Below, one piece after another: positions 3,362 through 64,000 of a stretch of 64,000 nt of DNA. The notes under the pieces are model-generated. The model saw only the letters and a program-made list of their open reading frames with translations, made no database searches and was not told the origin of the DNA. Positions within the stretch are counted from its first letter, which is position 1. Every line of letters starts with the position of its first letter. The position numbers and the translations under genes were made by a program. Source of the DNA: a virus; the IMG/VR virus record IMGVR_UViG_3300029419_000188. One strand, given 5' to 3'.

Positions 3362-3447
3362 AACATGAAAAGCTAAGACATTTTTTGTATTAGATTTTAT
3401 ATTTTATAGAGTTTTATCTATAATAAAAAAAATAAAAATTTATTATT

Positions 3448-3562
3448 TGGAAAAGAATACTCCAACTGATTCATGAACAAAACAACGTTTTGTGAATGAC
3501 AGTATTTTCATGAACAACACAATGTTTTGTGAATAATCAGTCAGAGATGAATTTTCCAACTC
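3448..3562 (+). repeat. IS200/IS605 left-end-derived repeat, copy A (contains a ~65-bp internal duplication-bearing insert)
   Basis: shares ggaaaagaatactccaactgatt ... atcagtcagagatgaattttccaactcg with the IS end at 62084-62172; near-perfect inverted copy at 6478-6562. Confidence 0.6.
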
Positions 3563-5556: not shown

Positions 5557-6138
5557 ATGAATAAAATTTTTTGTATTATGGGTAAATCATCATCTGGAAA
5601 AGATACAATTTATAATCTTATTAAAAATCAATTTGAATTTGAGAATCTTTTGCCTGTGGTAATTTATAGCACTCGTCCAATGAGAGATGGAGAAATTCAA
5701 GATGAAACATATCATTTTATTTCTATGGACAAGATGAATGAACTTGAAAAGAATGGAGAATTAATTGAGAGAAGAAATTATGATACGGTAAATGGTATTT
5801 GGTCTTATGCAACTGGAATTAATTGTTTCAAACATAATAATAATTATCTTATTATTACAACACCAATTGCTTATAAAGAAATGCAGGATAAAATTAATGA
5901 TTTTGAACTTATACCAATCTATATTGAAGTAAATGATTATATTCGACTCACACGTGCATTAAATAGAGAAAAAATGAATGAAAACGAAAATTATGCAGAA
6001 GTGTGTAGAAGATTTTTATCTGATGCAGATGACTTTAGTGAAGAAATTCTTGAAAAATTAAAGATTACAAATAGATTTAATAATGATGAAAATTGTCTAA
6101 AAGAAGTTGAGTCATTTATAAAGCAAAATATAAATTAA
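5557..6138 (+). CDS. guanylate kinase-like nucleoside monophosphate kinase
   Basis: P-loop GKSSSGKDT and VIYSTRPMRDGEI..ETYHFIS match the Gmk pattern (G.SG.GK.T ... TTR.PR.GE..G.DYHF); start moved to the ATG with RBS AAAAAGGAGAGAAAATT. Confidence 0.65.
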   Translation: MNKIFCIMGKSSSGKDTIYNLIKNQFEFENLLPVVIYSTRPMRDGEIQDETYHFISMDKMNELEKNGELIERRNYDTVNGIWSYATGINCFKHNNNYLIITTPIAYKEMQDKINDFELIPIYIEVNDYIRLTRALNREKMNENENYAEVCRRFLSDADDFSEEILEKLKITNRFNNDENCLKEVESFIKQNIN

Positions 6139-6477
6139 AAAAGGAACTACTAACTGTTTGAACTAATTTACACAATTTATATAAAACTGAATATGTTTGA
6201 ATGGTTTTCAATAACAAATATAATTTAAGAGTACATTAAACATTGGTTGTAAAAAAAAGGAAGGAAAAATAAATGAAAAAATGATTGAATAAACAAATGA
6301 GTGCATTTGTTCTTGGATTTTTGGATACAGAAATGAATTATCGTTCTACAACAGATGAGGTTGTAGATGCCATCAAAATTGTAAAAGAACATATTATTAA
6401 AAAATTTTGGACAAGTTAGAAAGAAGTAATTATGAAACAGTAGAATGTGAATGATCTTATACAATTAATGTACATTC

Positions 6478-6562
6478 TTCATTGTGTTGTTCATGAAAAT
6501 ACTGTTATTCACAAAACGTTGTTTTGTTCATGAATCAGTTGGAGTGCTCTTTTGCCATTTTT
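6478..6562 (-). repeat. IS200/IS605 left-end-derived repeat, copy B (inverted relative to copy A)
   Basis: reverse complement matches copy A over ~70 bp with ~1 mismatch; its outer flank tctatc(a/g)aaaatggcaaaagagcactccaactgatt matches the IS end at 62084. Confidence 0.6.
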
Positions 6563-6615
6563 GATAGAAAAGAATTAATTATAAAAAAAATTAAATTTTA
6601 AAAGGAGAGAAAAAA

Positions 6616-10117: not shown

Positions 10118-10695
10118 AAGATAAGTTTTAATGTTTTTTCTTAAAATGTTTAAAATAATTAAATTGTCTCTATTTTTATGGAGACAATTTAATTTTTGAG
10201 TCATAATGAAAAAAATAAATAGAAATTATGTTTAGATATTTTTTTTAAAAGTAGAAACTCAAACTATTTTTTTTTCATATTTTTCTTACATTTGTCTATA
10301 ATAAAGAAAAATTTCAGAAAGAATTAAAAAAGGAGAAGAAATTATAATTTATGGATGAAAAAGTATTGAGAAAATTTAAGACAAATAATTTGACAACTAT
10401 GAAAAAGATATTTCATAATTGTAGTGAATGCTACTCAAATAATAAAAGAAGAAAGTGTAAGTAAGAATGCTTCTGATTCATTAGATCTAACTTGGATTAT
10501 TAAATAAGATATTTACCATGCAAATTTGCATGGTATTTTTTTTGATAAAATTTGGAAAATGATTTAATTGTCTACACAATTTTATCTAATTTCAATTATT
10601 TCATAATATCTTAAATTTTCTTAAATTCATTATATTTGTCTCATAATTATCTATAATATAAAAAAGAATTTTAAGTTTTTAAAAGGAGAGAAATT

Positions 10696-13712: not shown

Positions 13713-14162
13713 GTTTAAATTTTTCCCATATAATTTTTTGTTTATAAAGTTTTGATTACAATCCAATTGATATAAATCTGTATTATTATAAGGAATATAA
13801 ACCATATAATATGTTTGTCCAATACGAATTTGATTTAAATTTTCTCTTAAAGTAAAATCTTCCGTTAATTTCAAATTATCATAATTTGAAAAAAGCATTT
13901 TTTGATAAGAACGTTTATGTTTCCCACTAGTTTTATAATGTTGAATATCGATCAATTCAACTTTTTGAATATAAAAATTATTTTCTTTAATTTTTTTTAT
14001 AATTTTTTTTGTAAGAATTTAAAGCAAAATTATAAATTAACAGATATAAAATTGCAATTGTTGCTTCATGAAATGAAAATAAAAGATTATTTGTTATATT
14101 TTTTTTATAAAAATATATAATATAAAAATTAAACTTATAAGAATTTTAAAAGGAGTAAATTT

Positions 14163-14393
14163 ATGAAAAAACCAACTAAACAAGAATATGAAGAAGCTTG
14201 TAATAACATTAATTTTTGTAAAAATACAATTCGTTTAACAAGACAGAAGATTGATAAAAATTTAGATGAACTTTGTTCTTTAAAAAGTCAATTAAACACT
14301 TATCAAGAATTTTTAAATCAATCAATTAAAATCAAAGATAAATATGAAATTTATGAAGGATTAGAAAACGAGAAAAATGAAGAAAATTTGTAA
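14163..14393 (+). CDS. hypothetical small coiled-coil protein
   Basis: RBS AAAGGAGTAAATTT. Confidence 0.45.
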   Translation: MKKPTKQEYEEACNNINFCKNTIRLTRQKIDKNLDELCSLKSQLNTYQEFLNQSIKIKDKYEIYEGLENEKNEENL

Positions 14394-15171: not shown

Positions 15172-15455
15172 ACTACTCAAAAAAGTGGTCACAGTCTCCA
15201 CAATGATAGATCTCAACATTTGGTTTATCAAAACTATCGTATTCAAATTCTTCATTTGTGTAATATTTTCTATCATTGACTGCAATGTAATCTACACCGC
15301 TTGTCCTGTCAAAATCCATTCGAAACTTAAAAATCTTCTTACTACCACAATATGGACATTGACATTATCTGTATTGGGCAAGTGTCTTTAAATGTGAAAG
15401 ATAGTGTTCAGTCAGATATTCAATGTCATCAATATCTTCATCAATCTTGTGAATT
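15172..15455 (-). pseudogene. disrupted paralog of the Zn-ribbon gene 61350..61772, with an in-frame TAA and its 5' part separated by an IS insertion
   Basis: minus-strand translation ...LAQYR*CQCPYCGSKKIFKF...EIYHCGDCDHFF aligns with ...KQYRKCKCPRCGSKKIFKF...EIFHCGECDYLFS; the likely N-terminal remainder lies beyond the IS at ~17257-17330. Confidence 0.5.
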
Positions 15456-17256
15456 ACTCATGACTAAAGTCACGAGTGTCTTTCAAGATACATGTTTATA
15501 ACTCATTAAAAATGAGTATAGGATTAAATGCACAATCCAGATATTTTCTTACCTCATATGCCTGATGCAAATTTTTTGGATTTGTCTTACTCTGGCTCGC
15601 ATAGTTATCCCTTGATAACCATGATCGTACTATATACGATATAAGCTTAAACTACCACCATTCCCAGCGGTACTAAATTTTTTATATAATAATTGATAAA
15701 ATCTATTGTTGATATTTCATTTACATCGTTATATATATATAATTAATTTTATAAAGTTTTTTTATTATAACCTAAAATTTTATATTACAAGAATATTATT
15801 AAGAGACAAAATACTAATACCTTCATCAAATAAATTATTTTTTGCATTTGCATCTCGATCATGATGTACTCCACAAATTGGACATGTCCATTCACGATTA
15901 TTTAATTTCAAATTTACATTCTTATAACCACAATGATTACATAACTTACTAGATGCAAAAAATCTATCTACTTGAAGAAAAATGCCACCTTTCTTTTCCA
16001 TTTTATATTTTACAAATGTTAAAAATTGTCCCCAACCAACTGATGCAATTGCTTTCGCTAACTTATGATTTTTTATCATACCTTTAATATTTAAATCTTC
16101 ACAAATAAAAACATCACATTTATTTACAATTTCTTTACTTAATTTATGATGAAAATCTTTTCTTTGATTTTTAATCTTTTGATGTTCTTTTGCTAATTTG
16201 TATTTTGCTTTTTGATAATTATTAGATCCTTTCTTTTTTCTACTAAGTGATTGACTTAATCTTCTTACTCTTTTTTCATGTACTTTAATAAATTTTGGAT
16301 TTTCAACTTTTTCAGTATAATCTTTATTTCCATAAATAGCAAAATCTTTAATTCCCATATCAGATGCAATAATATTTTTTACATGCACAGTCGTAATAGG
16401 AATTGGTTTATCAACAATTGCTTCCATTTGCAATGAAATAGTATAAGTATCTTTATTTCTTTTTATTGTTGCACTTGTAATATTTGTATTCTCTGGTTGA
16501 ATATCCTGTAAGGTTTTTCTTTTTGGTAAAACAAATCTTACTTTTCCAACTTTAGGAATTTTTACATATGGTAATTTATCAATCATTAATAATTCAATGT
16601 TGTTATTTGTATATTTTGTTGTATAGGAGTTTCCACTTTCTTTATATTTATCTACAAATTTAGGAAATCCTGCTTTTTTACCATTTTTAATATTTTCAAA
16701 AAAATGATTATATGCATCATCAACATGTTCAATTGCACTTTCTAATGCAAATTTATCAGATAATTTTAAGAATCCATTTTCTTTTTTTAATTTTGGTAAA
16801 AAATTCTTTTTATAGTCAGATACAAATAGAGTTTCTTTTGAAGTTTCATAAAGATTTTTACGTTCTGATAAATAATTATTTCTTACAAATCTTGCATTAC
16901 CAATTTGTTGATTAATATTGATTGTTTGCTTTTCATTTGGTAATAAAGACAAAATAATACCATAATTAAAAAGCATTTTTCCATATGGTTCAAGAAGTGT
17001 ATTCTTATCTTTTGTAATAGTGAAACTTCTGCCATGAAAAATATATTTATTATTAATGATTTCTAATGTTAGCATATTTTTTATTCCTTTCATATCTGAT
17101 AAATATCATTCTATTACATTTATTGACAAAAGTCAATAAAAAATTCGTTTTTTAGTATTTTTTTATATTTTTAATAATTTCTTTATACATTAAAAATATC
17201 CTACAATAATAGTATTATTGTAGAAAGAAACTTTACTCATGACTAAAGTCACGAGT
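15455..17256 (-). mobile_element. TnpB-only IS200/IS605-family element (IS1341-like) bracketed by a 23-bp direct repeat containing an imperfect hairpin
   Basis: tactcatgactaaagtcacgagt at 15455-15477 and 17234-17256; tnpB inside; GC-richer 3' region 15480-15780 where a right-end guide (omega) RNA would be encoded. Confidence 0.55.
15780..17075 (-). CDS. tnpB: TnpB (IS605 OrfB family RNA-guided nuclease-like transposon protein)
   Basis: GNARFVRNNYL N-terminal motif and a C-terminal zinc finger CNHCGY...CPICG followed by HDRDANAKNN (RuvC-III-like); start moved to the ATG with RBS GAAAGGA. Confidence 0.7.
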   Translation of the reverse strand: MLTLEIINNKYIFHGRSFTITKDKNTLLEPYGKMLFNYGIILSLLPNEKQTININQQIGNARFVRNNYLSERKNLYETSKETLFVSDYKKNFLPKLKKENGFLKLSDKFALESAIEHVDDAYNHFFENIKNGKKAGFPKFVDKYKESGNSYTTKYTNNNIELLMIDKLPYVKIPKVGKVRFVLPKRKTLQDIQPENTNITSATIKRNKDTYTISLQMEAIVDKPIPITTVHVKNIIASDMGIKDFAIYGNKDYTEKVENPKFIKVHEKRVRRLSQSLSRKKKGSNNYQKAKYKLAKEHQKIKNQRKDFHHKLSKEIVNKCDVFICEDLNIKGMIKNHKLAKAIASVGWGQFLTFVKYKMEKKGGIFLQVDRFFASSKLCNHCGYKNVNLKLNNREWTCPICGVHHDRDANAKNNLFDEGISILSLNNILVI

Positions 17257-17632
17257 ATGCAGTTTCTATTTTAATCAAATGCTGAGTTAATTTCCAATGA
17301 TGTATCAATTACAGCTGCAAATAAAACTGTAAAATTTGAAAAGGTAAATACTTCAACTGCAGACAAAGAAAACACAAATACAGTCAATAATACAACAACT
17401 GATAATCAAAATAAAGTAGATAAAACACAAACAAGCGATAATAATCTTGTTGTAATTATTCAATATTCATTAATATTTATTTTCTGTATTGAATTAGTTT
17501 GATATTTCATAAAGAAAAAAAATTAATCTTTTAAGAAGAATGCAAAAAATTGCATTCTTCTTTTATATTTTTTATATTTTTATCTATAATATAAAAAATA
17601 ATATTTTTGAATTTTAAAAGGAGAGAAAAATT

Positions 17633-18136
17633 ATGAAATATTTAAGCAAATTAACAGATGCAGAACTTACGGAAATTTACAAATCTTTTATGACTTCAAC
17701 TGATAAATTTGTAGATTTAATAATTACAAGAGATGAGAACAGTATTACACTAGAAGGACATATTCGTATTCCAGAAGAAGATAAAGAGTATGCAGATGAA
17801 GAAGGATATTGTCTAATTGATGAAGATTATGAGATTACAGATTACAATGTAACAGCATATCATCATTCTGGAAATATGGATTATAAATTAAGAGAATATT
17901 TATATGAAAAATTTGGAGTTGAATATGCAAAAGATTTCTTATTTATGAATAATAATTTTACTGGGCATTATGATGTAAATGGAAAACCAATCTTCCTCGG
18001 AGATACTATTATTGAAGGTTGTAATGGACTTATCAGTAGTGTTGAATTTAATAAAGAACGTGGTGCATATTGGTTAAAAGGACTTGGTGATGGTTATTCA
18101 ATTGAAAATTCATCTATTGAATGGGAAAAAATTTGA
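17633..18136 (+). CDS. hypothetical protein
   Basis: promoter tctataat at 17583; consensus leader. Confidence 0.5.
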   Translation: MKYLSKLTDAELTEIYKSFMTSTDKFVDLIITRDENSITLEGHIRIPEEDKEYADEEGYCLIDEDYEITDYNVTAYHHSGNMDYKLREYLYEKFGVEYAKDFLFMNNNFTGHYDVNGKPIFLGDTIIEGCNGLISSVEFNKERGAYWLKGLGDGYSIENSSIEWEKI

Positions 18137-19021: not shown

Positions 19022-19219
19022 ACTTAAAAGAACAACTGACAATTTGAATTAATTAAAAAAAATATGTACAAATAAAATAAATTTGTACATATTTTTTATT
19101 ATTTGGAAAAGAAATTGATATAAATATTTTTTTACTATTCTTTTAATTTATCTTCATATTTTTCTTTTTTTTATCTATAATATAAAAATTGAAAATCAAG
19201 TTTTTGATAGGAGAAAATT

Positions 19220-21347: not shown

Positions 21348-21617
21348 GTATAATTATTAACTAAATATATACTTATAATAAGATTACTTGGCAAATGCTA
21401 AGTAATCTTATATTTTGTCTAAAAAGAATTTAGTTTCATTTGTCAAAATATCACAATTTTCATATCATTATTGTATCTGATTGTTTCATTGAACTACAAA
21501 TTTGAATTACATTTGTCTAATATTTTAGACTTTATTTTTTTTTAATAAATACATTTTTTTATTATATTTTTTATTTATTTATCTATAATAATAAAAATAA
21601 AATTGAGAGGTGACACT

Positions 21618-31449: not shown

Positions 31450-31665
31450 TTTAATATTGACAACCTCCCACGGATAAATCCGTGGGATTCCTTAGATTCG
31501 ACAATCGCACTAGCATTCCTAAGAACACTAGATATAAATTGTCTCTTTCAGGATTTCGTGCATTTCGTTCAAGGCAAAGCCTTTTACTAGATATCTTGTT
31601 TTCACAAGAACAACGCGGTTGATGTCTGAACCGTTTTTTATTTATTTATATGTTAATTAATTAAA
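31450..31665 (-). ncRNA. putative TnpB guide (omega/right-end) RNA scaffold region
   Basis: GC-rich structured non-coding DNA immediately 3' of tnpB with several hairpins, where IS605-family TnpB omega RNAs are encoded. Confidence 0.4.
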
Positions 31666-33235
31666 ATCCAAAACAATTTTTATAACTAATTTTTTTTGCT
31701 TTCATATCTGCAATCAATTCATTTTGCAACTTTATAAAATTATCAAATTCTGCAATACACTTATCTCTATCAACATGTTTAAAACTTATATCTGCATTAT
31801 GGTATAAAAATGCACTATATAAATCTCGTTGTACTTTTTGTCCATCAATTATTTTTTCTCTTTGGTTTAATGGTATTTTTACATAAGTATCTGTATCATG
31901 ATTATATTGACTACCTTTATATGTGATAGGATTCACATAAACAATTTTTCCCTCCATTTGTTTTACTTTTTCTTCTAACAATTTTAAAAATCTAGCTGGT
32001 GATCTATCATTAATTGTTTTTCCAAAACGTTTACATCTATTTTTATTATTATTTGATTTTATTTGTTTATCATTATTTTCAAATGTTGTATTTGTTTCTT
32101 TTTTATTATTGACATTTTGTTCATTTGAACAATCTTTTGTTTCTACAAGTTTCTTTTTTTCCTTCTTTTTTAATGCATTAAAATTCATATCTTCAATAAT
32201 AAAAAATAATGAGTCTTTTACTATTTCATTTACTTGAGTTCTGTGTGAATGTGTTGTATATTCAGATTTTTGTCGATACAAATTTTTTAATTTATTTCTT
32301 AACATACAATATCTTTTTGAATATACCCATTTATCTTTACTTCTCTTTTTTATTGTTCCATCTTCATTATATTTCTTTGGATTTGTTATACGCTTTGAAT
32401 ATTCCATCTTTTTTTGAATTTTTGCAATTTTTCTATTATAATTTTTACATTTTGGTGCTAATTCATTTAAAACAGTTTTTGTCTCTGAATATCCAGCAAC
32501 AGTTGAAATACTTGGATCCATTCCCATTGTGGAACCTTTTGATGTTATATTTCGTTTTGGTGGTTCTCCTTTGACATAAATTAGCGCATAATAGTGCCAA
32601 CCATTATTAAACATTCTACGTTTAATTTCACAATAAGAAATTTTATTTTCTAAAGATTCAAACAAATACACATCTTCAAGATTATATTTGGATATTTTGC
32701 ATTTTAAGTTAAGACCTAAATATTCAATTGTATAAGTATTTTTGTCAAATTTAATTCCATTTTTTAGACTTTTACTTGGAAGTGTATTAAAATCACGGAC
32801 TTTTTTATAATGAATTGTTTTTCCAGTTGAAAACAAAACCTTTTGAACACCATTCCAAACATTATCTACCTCTTTTTGAACTTGTGAGGATGCCAACATT
32901 TTAGAAAATTGACTACCACAAACTTTCATATAAGACTCTAATCCAGTTTTTGTGAGTCCGATTTCATACTTTATTTGATTCATGATATCTGATAATTCTT
33001 TTTTCCGTTTTTGTTTTTTTTCTTTATCAGATTTTGTATTTGGTTTTGATTCATTTAATTTAATATATTCTGTCAAAGCATTTTGATATTTTTTATTTGT
33101 TTTTAATGAGTTGATAAGTTTTTTTGTATGAGATACACATACATTATGAACATGTTCTAATGCAAAAAATCGATTTGCTAACTCTCTATGATCATATTTT
33201 GTTGTATCAATTAATAATTCTACAGTATACATCAT
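31661..33235 (-). CDS. tnpB: TnpB (IS605 OrfB family)
   Basis: 524-aa protein in the canonical position downstream of tnpA within paired IS ends. Confidence 0.65.
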   Translation of the reverse strand: MMYTVELLIDTTKYDHRELANRFFALEHVHNVCVSHTKKLINSLKTNKKYQNALTEYIKLNESKPNTKSDKEKKQKRKKELSDIMNQIKYEIGLTKTGLESYMKVCGSQFSKMLASSQVQKEVDNVWNGVQKVLFSTGKTIHYKKVRDFNTLPSKSLKNGIKFDKNTYTIEYLGLNLKCKISKYNLEDVYLFESLENKISYCEIKRRMFNNGWHYYALIYVKGEPPKRNITSKGSTMGMDPSISTVAGYSETKTVLNELAPKCKNYNRKIAKIQKKMEYSKRITNPKKYNEDGTIKKRSKDKWVYSKRYCMLRNKLKNLYRQKSEYTTHSHRTQVNEIVKDSLFFIIEDMNFNALKKKEKKKLVETKDCSNEQNVNNKKETNTTFENNDKQIKSNNNKNRCKRFGKTINDRSPARFLKLLEEKVKQMEGKIVYVNPITYKGSQYNHDTDTYVKIPLNQREKIIDGQKVQRDLYSAFLYHNADISFKHVDRDKCIAEFDNFIKLQNELIADMKAKKISYKNCFGF

Positions 33236-33247
33236 TTCATCTCTTTC

Positions 33248-33649
33248 TTAAGGTCTTGTTTTTTGTGTATTAATATAATTTTTAATTGTTAAACTACTAA
33301 CATTTTCAGCAGTTGAAACAAAATAACTTCTAGTCCATAAACTTGGCATTTTACTAAGTTGTGGAAATGTATCTCTTAATATTTTAGATGATGAACCTTT
33401 AATCCATTTCATAACATCTTGTGGTGATTGAGTTGGCAAACATTTCACAAATAAATGGACATGATCTTTATGACATTCCATAGTTAATATTTGAATGTTT
33501 CGTCTTTTGTATTCATTTATTGTTAATTGTTTAAACATATCTTCTACACCTTTAATTAAAAATATTTTTCTTCTATATCTTGGACAAAATACGAAATGAT
33601 AATGAATCATTGAAACTGTTGTTTTGGTTGAAATATAATCATTTTGCAT
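33248..33649 (-). CDS. tnpA: IS200-type Y1 (HUH) transposase TnpA
   Basis: HYHFVFCPRYRR, HxH motif HKDHVHLFV and catalytic-Tyr region RSYFVSTAENVS. Confidence 0.75.
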   Translation of the reverse strand: MQNDYISTKTTVSMIHYHFVFCPRYRRKIFLIKGVEDMFKQLTINEYKRRNIQILTMECHKDHVHLFVKCLPTQSPQDVMKWIKGSSSKILRDTFPQLSKMPSLWTRSYFVSTAENVSSLTIKNYINTQKTRP

Positions 33650-43262: not shown

Positions 43263-43392
43263 GAGTATCCGCCATTTATAAATAAAGTGGCGGATTTTTT
43301 ATTATTTTATAAAATTTAAAGTTATATTTTTTATATATTTATTTATAATGTATTATTGAAAATAATTTAAGTTTTTAAAAGGAGGAAATTTC

Positions 43393-53418: not shown

Positions 53419-53913
53419 TTAATCTCTTGTTTCAAAGTTTTTACAATTAGAAACTTTCATATCATCAATATATCCATTTATTGTATCATCTTTATTGCAA
53501 AAATAATAAAGTTCTGTTCCTGTATAATCAAAAGTTTGTGTTAGATGTTTGCAATTCATACAAGTATATTGTTTAAAACAATAATCATAAGTATATTCAA
53601 ACTTAGTAACATCTACAATATCAAATATCTTATTACCTATTTGTAAAATTTCTTCATCAATTTGTCCAATATATCCAGATATATTAGATTTCAAAATGTC
53701 TTCTGGTCCATAACACCATTGAACGTAATTTTTATATGAATCATATTCTAGAGAATATTCTTTTAATTGATTTTTAATGCTTTTTTGCAATTTTTCATTA
53801 TTTTGAAAACTTGAAAAAAAACAAAATCCATAATAATCTTCTGCAAATCCTTTATCAAAAATTACAATATATAAATTATTACTCAAACTATAGATTCCAC
53901 CTATTTTTAACAT
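53419..53913 (-). CDS. hypothetical protein, KIGGIY paralog family with a Cys-rich C-terminal extension
   Basis: MLKIGGIYSLSNNLYIVIFD; SGYIGQIDEEILQ; RBS AAAGGACAAG. Confidence 0.5.
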   Translation of the reverse strand: MLKIGGIYSLSNNLYIVIFDKGFAEDYYGFCFFSSFQNNEKLQKSIKNQLKEYSLEYDSYKNYVQWCYGPEDILKSNISGYIGQIDEEILQIGNKIFDIVDVTKFEYTYDYCFKQYTCMNCKHLTQTFDYTGTELYYFCNKDDTINGYIDDMKVSNCKNFETRD

Positions 53914-61349: not shown

Positions 61350-61772
61350 TTGCCTATCTCATATTTTCCATTTTCAAACACAAAAGGAATTTCAGTCATC
61401 AATCTGGCATCTGATGAACTTACGTACTATGTTAGTGAAGATGTTCCTGCAAAAGAATACACATTAACACAAATAGTACAACTATGCTTTGATACAATTG
61501 ATGAGGCTATTGATGAGAGCGAAAAAAATATTGTAAAACAATTATCAAGTTTAGATAAATTGAAACAATATCGTAAATGTAAGTGTCCACGTTGTGGAAG
61601 TAAAAAAATCTTTAAATTTTGTTTGGATTCAGATTTGACATCAAGGGCTGGTGATTATTGTCCAGTAAATGAAGAAACATACTATACAAAAGAAGAATAC
61701 CATGTTGATGCATTTGATAGACCAGATATTGAGATTTTTCATTGTGGAGAATGTGATTATTTATTTTCGTAG
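61350..61772 (+). CDS. hypothetical Zn-ribbon protein (CKCPRCG...HCGECDY)
   Basis: intact paralog of the disrupted gene at 15172-15455; weak RBS. Confidence 0.45.
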   Translation: MPISYFPFSNTKGISVINLASDELTYYVSEDVPAKEYTLTQIVQLCFDTIDEAIDESEKNIVKQLSSLDKLKQYRKCKCPRCGSKKIFKFCLDSDLTSRAGDYCPVNEETYYTKEEYHVDAFDRPDIEIFHCGECDYLFS

Positions 61773-62172
61773 TAATTATAAAGAGTGGACATATTTTTGT
61801 TCACTTTTTTTCTTATATTTTTTTCAAATAATTATCATTATCAAACTGAATACAAATACTATATTGTAAAAATTTTGACTCTCTAAAATCAATTCTAAAC
61901 CCTTTTCAAGATTGTCTTAATGTATTTATATCATGACTGAGATTATAATTGTCTTAATTGTTTCTAGTATGTTTTCCGAAATTTAATAAAAATAGGTTTA
62001 CATAATTACATTATAGTTAACTTATTTGGTACTTGTGAATATTGTATCTTGATTTTTATCAATTGATTATCATTTCTATCGAAAATGGCAAAAGAGCACT
62101 CCAACTGATTTTTTAAATCAGTCGGAGATGAATTTTGCTCAACTTGAAAAGTTGGTTGAATAAATAGTTTAT

Positions 62173-62592
62173 TTATTCAACTTTTTGATTTTTGATATAT
62201 TCTTCCACTATTTTTGTGTTTCTTTCACTAACAGTACAAATAAAATAAGAATGACTCCAAAAATATGGTTTCCAATAATATTTATTTAATTGTTGTTGAA
62301 AGTTTTTTCTTATGTTCCTTGATGAAGCACTTTTAAATGCATTTATAAACTGAGATAAATTTACATTTGTACCACATTCAAATAATATATGAATATGATC
62401 AATATTTGTATTTATTTCAAGTAAATGAAAATCTCTTTCACTAAAATATGTATTTGTATAGTTTATTAAAAATTTTTCTAAATCATTATTAATTATAGGT
62501 TTTCTGTATTTTGTAACTAACACTAAATGGTATTGTAATAAAAAGCAACTATGTCGATTTAAATAATATGTATTGTTGTTATTTTTTTTCAT
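62173..62592 (-). CDS. tnpA: IS200-type Y1 (HUH) transposase TnpA
   Basis: HxH motif IDHIHILFE and Tyr region HSYFICTVSE; start at MKKNNNN with RBS AGGAAGGAG. Confidence 0.7.
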   Translation of the reverse strand: MKKNNNNTYYLNRHSCFLLQYHLVLVTKYRKPIINNDLEKFLINYTNTYFSERDFHLLEINTNIDHIHILFECGTNVNLSQFINAFKSASSRNIRKNFQQQLNKYYWKPYFWSHSYFICTVSERNTKIVEEYIKNQKVE

Positions 62593-62783
62593 TTTTTTAT
62601 ACTCCTTCCTATTTCTTGAATATTTTTTATGATACAATATATAATACAAATGTAACAACTGATAAATTTATTATATATATAATAACATATAAGTATTGAA
62701 AATTCAACACTTTTATATTGACAAATTGTATAACAACTGATATAATATAATTACAAAATATTAAATAGAAAGGAAGTGAGAAA

Positions 62784-64000
62784 ATGTATTACCAACAAGA
62801 TGAAAATAAAATGTATCAAGCTCAAACAATTGTAGTAAACAAACTAAAAGAACAAAAATTATTTCATTATTGTGAAGAACAATGTCATGCTGCAAAATTA
62901 TTAAGGAATGCAACTGTATTTCGTGGACGGCAATTACTTTTTGCATATAATAATGATTATAAAAATTTAAAAAATCATCAAATAGAAGTCATTGATGAAT
63001 TTAATACCTATATATCTGATAAGTATGGAAAGATTTCAAAAAATCACTATTTACCATATTCTCAAGAGTTTGAATATTTATATAAACAGAGTAATAATCC
63101 TGATTATTTTAATCCAATTTTAACATCTCAAACAAGAACTAGAGTTGTAAAACAAGCAATGGAAGATTTTAGTTCCTTTTTTAAGAATACAAAAAAATAT
63201 TATTCAGATTCTAAAAATTATACAGGCAAACCAAACTATCCAAAATATACAAAAGTTGAAACAATTACAGTCGATTATTCTAATCAAGATTGTACTATTT
63301 ATGAAATAGATGGTATTACTTATTTAAAATTACCACATATGCAAAAAAATAAAAATGCAAAATTGAAACCTAAAAAATGTGGTTATATTAATCTTGGTAA
63401 ATTAAAAATTAGAAAATTAATGAATTTAAAAATTTCACCTTATTATGACACTTATAAAATCAGTCTTGTTTATGAAATTGAAAAATTCACTACTTCATTA
63501 GATAATACAAGAATTTTAGGTCTTGATCCAGGACTAAATAACTTTTTAACTTCAAGTAATAACTGTGGATTACATCCATTTATTATTAATGGAAGAGATA
63601 TGAAGTCTTACAATCAACACTATAATGAAAAACTTGCTTATTTAAGAAGTAGATTACCAAAGAAACAATACACTTCTAAACAAATACAAAGATTATCAAA
63701 AAAACGAGACTGTTATTTTAACAATAAATTTCATAAAATAATAAATTATATCATCCAATATTGTATAAAAAATAACATTGGTACAATTGTTATTGGACAC
63801 AATAAATTACAAAAACAAAATTATAATAACGGTAAAATTCAAAATCAACATTTTTGTTTTATGCCAAATTATAAATTTCTTAAAATGTTTAAATTAAAAT
63901 GTGCAGTTTATAACTTAAACATAATAGAAACAGAAGAAAGTTATACCTCTCAAGCAAGTTTTTTAGATATAGATAAAATTCCAACTTATAAAAAGGGAAA
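62784..64000 (+). CDS. tnpB: TnpB (IS605 OrfB family), partial; continues beyond the window
   Basis: LGLDPGLNNF (RuvC-I D) and ESYTSQ (RuvC-II E) motifs; no stop before position 64000. Confidence 0.7.
   Translation, partial: MYYQQDENKMYQAQTIVVNKLKEQKLFHYCEEQCHAAKLLRNATVFRGRQLLFAYNNDYKNLKNHQIEVIDEFNTYISDKYGKISKNHYLPYSQEFEYLYKQSNNPDYFNPILTSQTRTRVVKQAMEDFSSFFKNTKKYYSDSKNYTGKPNYPKYTKVETITVDYSNQDCTIYEIDGITYLKLPHMQKNKNAKLKPKKCGYINLGKLKIRKLMNLKISPYYDTYKISLVYEIEKFTTSLDNTRILGLDPGLNNFLTSSNNCGLHPFIINGRDMKSYNQHYNEKLAYLRSRLPKKQYTSKQIQRLSKKRDCYFNNKFHKIINYIIQYCIKNNIGTIVIGHNKLQKQNYNNGKIQNQHFCFMPNYKFLKMFKLKCAVYNLNIIETEESYTSQASFLDIDKIPTYKKG

Follow-up and report, generated by a model that had tools for sequence, protein, structure and literature searches.

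A TnpB-only, ISDra2-like element placed after TTGAT in a zinc-ribbon-type gene, and the rearrangement at its left side

We analysed a stretch of 64,000 nucleotides (nt) of viral DNA (IMG/VR record IMGVR_UViG_3300029419_000188; 'the window' below means this whole stretch), in which a lone tnpB gene lies on the minus strand between two copies of a direct repeat of 23 base pairs (bp), next to a fragment of a zinc-ribbon-type gene. The initial annotation had described this locus as a TnpB-only insertion sequence (IS) element of the IS200/IS605 type inserted into that gene. The coordinates of all features are collected in Table 1. The tnpB gene is the single long open reading frame (ORF) between the two repeat copies, and no tnpA is found between them. 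The encoded protein matches three Pfam domains (OrfB_IS605, 7e-25; Cas12f1-like_TNB, 8e-20; HTH_OrfB_IS605, 3e-7), scores 279.6 bits with the NCBIfam model guided_TnpB (cut-off 100) and aligns over its whole length with the ISDra2 TnpB structures 8H1J and 8EXA (E about 1e-74). The D-E-D motifs of its RuvC domain (SDMGIKD, ICEDLN and HDRDANA) and both CxxC pairs of the zinc finger are intact. The second ATG is probably the true start of the gene, because homologues begin at MLTLE and AAAGGA precedes this codon. The locus also has the other hallmarks of the IS200/IS605 family: TnpB is present (without TnpA), subterminal palindromes stand at both ends without terminal inverted repeats, and there is no target duplication. 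All family features that can be tested on sequence were thus found, in agreement with the initial annotation, and on this basis the element is a non-autonomous, TnpB-only member of IS200/IS605 closely related to ISDra2.

The repeated 23-mer, TACTCATGACTAAAGTCACGAGT, occurs in the window in exactly the two copies annotated and was matched in none of 100 shuffles (0 expected). A third copy is absent from the 64 kb even at up to three mismatches. Read from the sequence, the 23-mer pairs as a 9-bp stem with a single mismatch, which reads as G.T for the tnpB-sense strand and as A.C for its complement; this is the sole hint toward strand-specific, single-strand transposition. The borders of the element were set with 3,571 TnpB relatives (E<1e-20) and about 80 loci collected with their flanks. 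In 28 of 28 distinct left-end flanks of related copies, TTGA(N) is found 16-19 nt 5' of the hairpin, and farther out these flanks are unrelated. The left end also aligns with that of L018 from TTGAT^ onward (a caret marks a junction). At the other side, 30 distinct right ends share the hairpin followed by (T/A)(C/A)TTCA(C/T), beyond which the sequences diverge. Compensating changes preserve the outer stem of the left end (the relatives have AGCCGTC/GACGGCT, the window element AGAAACT/AGTTTCT), and the hairpin is kept at both ends even where the TnpB proteins of the copies are only ~50% identical. The hairpins of the two ends stand in direct orientation, and their conservation is family-wide. 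In IS200/IS605 elements, subterminal hairpins are the handles that the Y1 transposase TnpA binds on a single top strand. Since the hairpin, with compensating changes, is found at both ends of dozens of independent copies with unrelated flanks, the 23-bp repeat belongs to the element: comparison with the related copies identifies it as the pair of conserved subterminal hairpins of the left and right ends, and not as the edge of the element. The repeats had been annotated as the borders, and this has to be corrected, because related copies diverge at TTGA(N)^ and at TTCA(C/T)^, outside the hairpins; the element extends beyond the repeats by 17 nt on the left-end side and by 6 nt on the right-end side. 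The contigs L008:1 and L009:1, both short and each from another assembly, break at the same window position, 17240, inside the left-end hairpin, which hints at strain variation or a repeat there.

Table 1. Coordinates of the element, of its flanks and of the sequences compared with it (window positions; a caret marks a junction)
Feature	Position	Strand	Remarks
Element as a whole	17273..15449	-	1,825 bp; ~45 related copies and two natural empty sites
TTGAT, target / transposon-associated motif (TAM) at left end	17274..17278	-	reads GCATTTGAT^TAAAATAG
Left end	17209..17273	-	outer stem, hairpin, palindrome at 17232..17209
Left-end outer stem	AGAAACT 17267..17261 / AGTTTCT 17232..17226	-	pairings read from sequences
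Left-end hairpin	17256..17235	-	ACTCGTGAC-TTTA-GTCATGAGT; enclosed by outer stem
Repeat copy 2 (left-end hairpin)	17234..17256		exact match
Repeat copy 1 (right-end hairpin)	15455..15477		exact match; conserved in 30 distinct right ends
Last 6 nt of right end, ATTCAC	15449..15454	-	element stops at 15449
tnpB	15780..17093	-	437 amino acids (aa) from ATG 17093; likely true start ATG 17075, 431 aa
Predicted omega-RNA (reRNA) scaffold	15449..15674	-	226 nt conserved structure; ends in right-end hairpin
Predicted 16-nt guide-encoding flank, AAGATTGATGAAGATA	15433..15448	-	from the ISDra2 ~16-nt rule
3' two-thirds of interrupted gene (pseudogene)	15173..15448	-	TAA 15365-15367; stop 15173-15175
Paralog of interrupted gene	61350..61772	+	itself 5'-truncated; TTGAT at homologous spot 61489-61493
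Non-native left flank, 140 nt	17274..17413		no L156 counterpart
Open coding-like frame, 76 codons	17275-17502	+	last ~28 codons shared with L156, L153-155, L157-158
Unoccupied target TTGAT	53854..53858	-	window reads TTTTGAT^AAAGGATTTGCAG, within ORF 53419..53913; corresponds to L015 right-end junction
blastn block, L156 4916-5694	14400-15175		94.6% identity
blastn block, L156 5713-5773	15388-15448		93.4% identity
blastn block, L156 6145-6926	17414-18200		93.9% identity
Related copy, L015:2188-4690	34542-33862, 17208-15447, 53853-53791		gene order scrambled relative to window

Between the tnpB stop and the right end the element contains a conserved structure, the expected omega-RNA. For 15 family members, RNAalifold predicts a consensus of 45 pairs, and compensatory changes are seen at 22 of these; the single-sequence fold of the region has a z of -4.1. 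A CCGTGGTGAAAGTCCAC stem-loop is present in the omega-RNA of every GC-richer relative and absent from that of the window copy and of L015, a copy described below. The target of ISDra2 is TTGAT, and the last ~16 nt of its reRNA derive from the flank (PMC8612924). Under the same rule the window element would carry the guide given in Table 1; the site in the paralog 61350..61772 differs from this predicted guide at four positions. The features expected of an RNA-guided TnpB are present at the level of sequence, namely a structured RNA 3' of tnpB, a TAM identical to the target motif and a predicted guide that matches the donor joint.

Among the known systems, ISDra2 of Deinococcus radiodurans is like the window element in the whole-length homology of TnpB, the TTGAT target and TAM, the subterminal hairpins at both ends, the lack of a target duplication and the right-end-derived guide RNA whose guide is the flank. 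It differs from it in several respects: the window element has no tnpA, its TnpB has a family-specific N-terminal extension of ~40 aa, its omega-RNA scaffold lies wholly downstream of the tnpB stop, which is about 330 nt from the right end, and its host is a gut Clostridia-like organism of 23% G+C found in metagenomes only. IS1341-type (tnpB-only) elements also have a lone tnpB between end hairpins, and their mobilisation needs TnpA in trans. IS608 of Helicobacter pylori shares the single-strand 'peel and paste' architecture, whereas the target here is TTGAT and not TTAC, and the right end finishes in TTCAC and not TCAA. The closest relatives found are metagenomic copies with TnpB identities of 50-97%. 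One relative (L022) is autonomous, with tnpA between the left end and tnpB, a hairpin that differs by one base and a TTGAT flank. A TnpB scan of the GTDB species genomes gave no close relative, and the identity of the flotillin-like neighbour to rumen 'Eubacterium sp.' metagenome-assembled genomes is no more than 62-65%. A search of the phage collection with the region found nothing.

Directly beyond the right end, on the minus strand, lies the C-terminal part of the interrupted gene. As annotated, it is homologous to 61350..61772: the translation of 15448..15176 and residues 50-139 of the paralog share 55.6% identity across 90 aa (tblastn E 1e-27), and it carries the TAA nonsense codon (15367..15365) opposite a Lys of the paralog (QYR*CQCP vs QYRKCKCP). 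A profile of the family matches this part at positions 65-162 with 126.9 bits. The family was obtained by a full HMMER search with the paralog and has 45 representatives (P0121-P0165) among 1.84 billion; a word-indexed search with the C-terminal part found nothing. Its core of about 62 aa reads CPxCGSKKIFKF...DSDW..G.GDY...RPD...HCxxC, to which some members add an N-terminal domain of ~75 aa and others a membrane segment. The interrupted gene has CPYC...HCGDC; the zinc-ribbon Pfam matches of the family members are sub-threshold (E 0.01-0.2), and Pfam and PADLOC give no assignment for the family. The truncation of the paralog is seen upstream of ASDELTYY, where it diverges into sequence unrelated to the 97%-identical, full-length P0121, which reads MKNEYHGRTDFRYHFEMYVIDIEKFNGEWCYQV at this point. 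The paralog has no ribosome-binding site at its start and only a TTG as start codon. A resemblance between FTFSN and FPFSN that had been noted earlier falls in this non-native part of the paralog.

The tidy account of an insertion into a gene needed an element-free relative as its test, and two empty sites were found. The first is in L156, a syntenic contig reached via a 92%-identical orthologue of the right-hand neighbour. It contains the flotillin-like gene, the DUF4241 gene and the gene for a 167-aa protein, its flanks are 97-98% identical to those of the window, and the element is absent. Homology between the window and L156 ends at exactly 15448, and TTGAT directly precedes that base in L156. 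Across the right-end junction L156 reads ...TGTTTTGAT^AAGATTGAT..., and at the equivalent of 15448 it reads ...AAATGTTTTGAT^AAGATTGATAAAGAT..., in frame as Cys-Phe-Asp^Lys-Ile-Asp. After TTGAT, the site matches the predicted guide AAGATTGATGAAGATA with one mismatch. As TTGAT occurs at only 0.37% of positions in the window, the right-end junction is not a chance breakpoint. The second empty site is in the window itself. L015 holds a 97.6%-identical copy of the element at a different site, where it reads ...AATTCAC^AAAGGATTTGCAG; its right-end flank matches the window from 53853 downward, and there the window has an unoccupied TTGAT (Table 1). These two sites are direct support for three points, namely that the element inserted into the gene, that it follows the TTGAT rule and that its right end finishes in TTCAC. 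The comparison places the element in the zinc-ribbon-type gene between the Phe-Asp and Lys codons. The annotated insertion event is therefore upheld by the collinearity of L156 up to 15448 and the TTGAT^ that precedes it. The initial annotation suggested a check for the TTAC-like target rule of IS200/IS605: the insertion is indeed 3' of a fixed motif, but this motif is the TTGAT of ISDra2 and not TTAC. The long contigs with neighbouring genes at about 100% identity all carry the element, identical matches to TnpB and to the flanking proteins were found at the same occupied locus only, and 87%-identical orthologues of the 167-aa gene stand in another gene order and were of no help for the empty site. 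The lineage is present in the samples JGI 3300029373, ERZ28636835, SRR12179859, SRR20608242 and SRR30281874.

The minus strand of L156 also holds the true front half of the gene, MKVNF*GKNVNIVNKLKGQHNEFLCHWNMYVLQVKKVD...SAKTCKLSDAVQKCFD, which matches the N-terminal domain of the full-length family members (150-173 aa). Where L156 has 371 nt with this N-terminal half and the upstream region (5774-6144), the window has the element and a further 140 nt (15449-17413). The 371 nt are absent from the window, and 17274-17413 has no similarity to them above that of shuffles. The N-terminal piece that had been expected beyond 17257 is not there: 17257-17273 is part of the element, tblastn with the paralog finds nothing beyond 17257, and none of the frames of 17274-17700 yields an N-terminal domain with the family profile. 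The outer segments thus do not join into a contiguous homologue of 61350..61772, and the pre-insertion gene cannot be restored from them, since the left flank is foreign. A chimera of the N-terminal half of L156 and the C-terminal part in the window, joined at TTGAT^AAG, matches the profile from end to end (181.6 bits vs 126.9 for the window part only); among the sequences compared, the gene can be rebuilt only from these two pieces. None of the lineages seen retains a functional gene: the window copy is interrupted by the element, carries the TAA and lacks its front half; the L156 copy has a TAA at codon 6 and has lost the zinc-ribbon part through a deletion of ~200 nt; and in L157/158 the whole gene is deleted.

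As the N-terminal half and the upstream region are missing from the window, a second rearrangement, on the left-end side, has occurred. Searches of the rest of the window, of all fetched loci and of viral contigs gave no match to the 140 nt that now flank the left end, and these form no hairpin. They are part of an open plus-strand frame with a codon-usage score of 0.4-0.5 per codon throughout; the ~28 codons shared with other contigs differ from L156 by five non-synonymous and two synonymous changes (counted from the sequences), and the frame looks like a gene remnant. On the left side, the homology of the window with L156 is lost no more than about 10 nt from another TTGAT (minus strand, 17409..17405); an indel makes the alignment ambiguous there.

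Taken as a whole, an ISDra2-like element inserted after TTGAT in a zinc-ribbon-type gene, with a later rearrangement of the left side, is very probably what lies at this locus. Some points weigh against this reading. The left flank is non-native, hence there is no clean one-step insertion, and the reconstructed junction reads in frame into an open minus-strand frame of 44 codons with a decent codon score beside the junction, which may invite another reading. The element is found at one site only in this lineage, its current mobility is unproven, a search of the omega-RNA region against Rfam matched no family, and there is no cognate tnpA in the 64-kb window. The two tnpA genes in the window (33248..33649 and 62173..62658) belong to elements whose hairpins differ, since the 23-mer is not matched a third time even when three mismatches are allowed.

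A single insertion into an otherwise contiguous gene, in which the minus strand from 17257 on is the N-terminal piece and removal of the element restores the gene, draws on the same junction: once the borders are corrected, the reading frame continues from the left flank into the C-terminal part (...EINSAFD^KIDEDIDD), the FD at this joint fits the family motif CFDxID, coding scores are obtained for the 15 codons beside the junction, and the paralog carries TTTGAT at the same spot. However, FD is merely what the target TTTGAT encodes, none of the 64 N-terminal profile positions is found in any frame of 17274-17700, and the real N-terminal half of the orthologue, present in L156, is dissimilar to 17274-17413. 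Farther upstream the minus frame scores as non-coding and the plus frame as coding throughout, and no ribosome-binding site precedes the TTG at 17387. This account is already contradicted and very unlikely; it would need a family member with an N-terminus resembling MTVFVFSLSAVEVFTFSNFTVLFAAVIDTSLEINSAFD. It is likewise highly improbable that no insertion into the gene took place and that a deletion or recombination set a resident element beside a gene fragment. The left-end side is demonstrably rearranged, and the copy in L015 is also rearranged, with a truncated left end fused to sequence matching window 33862, but the right-end junction falls at the exact base after TTGAT in the orthologue, which a random breakpoint would do in ~0.4% of cases. 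A target-site duplication was considered for the 23-bp repeat and rejected, and the idea that the repeats are such a duplication, or attachment sites of another integrating element with tnpB as cargo, has next to no chance of being right: it would suit an exact direct repeat around a single gene, but the same hairpin with its compensating changes ends dozens of independent copies with unrelated flanks, neither empty site (L156; window 53854-53858) has the 23-mer, and IS200/IS605 elements produce no target duplication (PMC8612924).

For the insertion followed by a left-side rearrangement, we propose a course of events largely by analogy with ISDra2 (PMC8612924). A TnpA acting in trans would recognise the tnpB-sense strand by its hairpins and cleave it 3' of both TTGAT and TTCAC; the released strand would close into a circle and enter a new site 3' of another TTGAT. 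The element entered the gene 3' of TTGAT, presumably in this way, with no target duplication. TnpB with its omega-RNA (15674..15449 plus about 16 nt of flank as guide) would then cut element-free copies of that site next to TTGAT, and cleavage of the empty donor site would favour re-copying and retention of the element. Afterwards the left side was rearranged: the N-terminal half and the region upstream were lost, and 140 nt of unrelated DNA ending in TTGAT now abut the left end. This second event may have been a recombination between two direct copies, the second copy having inserted at that other TTGAT, or an aberrant strand transfer by TnpA from the left end to another TTGAT. One of these two routes is the most likely, because the new flank also ends in TTGAT; an unrelated deletion is less likely.

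In the L015 copy the left-end hairpin is gone: the element is truncated at the position equivalent to 17208 and joined there to sequence matching window 33862, which is the edge of another IS, the one with tnpA and the 524-aa ORF described below. In both known copies (window and L015) the junction of right end and guide is pristine and the left-end side is rearranged. It is conceivable, and in our estimate rather unlikely, that tnpB-only elements undergo one-ended strand transfers on their left-end side, to a nearby TTGAT, when TnpA works on them in trans.

The window is dense in other IS200/IS605 elements. On the minus strand at 31661-33649, an IS200-type tnpA (33248..33649) is directly followed by an ORF of 524 aa (31661..33235), which has no Pfam match and scores 29 bits with guided_TnpB (cut-off 100). 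It has the look of a TnpB-like partner that has diverged strongly, carries a long Lys/Asn-rich insert and lacks an obvious CxxC finger. An ORF of 526 aa beside a Y1 transposase is present in L150. Another IS200 tnpA (62173-62658, minus strand) is located about 400 nt past the stop of the paralog 61350..61772, and a further tnpB (GLDPGLNN...ETEESYTSQ; about 63400-64000, plus strand) runs off the end of the window. Inverted repeats with 95-96% identity are found at 3451-3524 / 6480-6553 and at 6533-6573 / 62070-62110. As the arm 62070-62110 lies just downstream of tnpA 62173, these are probably copies of the end of that IS, or a small derivative element. Upstream of many small plus-strand genes stands a conserved promoter-like block, TTATATTTTTTATATTTTTATCTATAAT...AAAGGAG (3397-3466, 10275-10344, 14094-14163, 17563-17632, 19148-19216, 21536-21602, 43322-43391 and others).

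The element is of an ordinary, well-understood kind, and its significance beyond annotation is small. For annotation, the locus is an example of a repeat that resembles the edge of an element and can be an internal end hairpin. The compact omega-RNA without one stem-loop, together with the AT-rich TnpB, may have minor use for the mining of TnpB variants. If one-ended transfers on the left-end side did take place, they would give IS200/IS605 elements a way to delete adjacent DNA and to swap flanks; we are unaware of a prior description. The analysis also yields exact borders, the target motif and a predicted guide for an ISDra2-like element whose host is a gut bacterium that is uncultured and very rich in AT.

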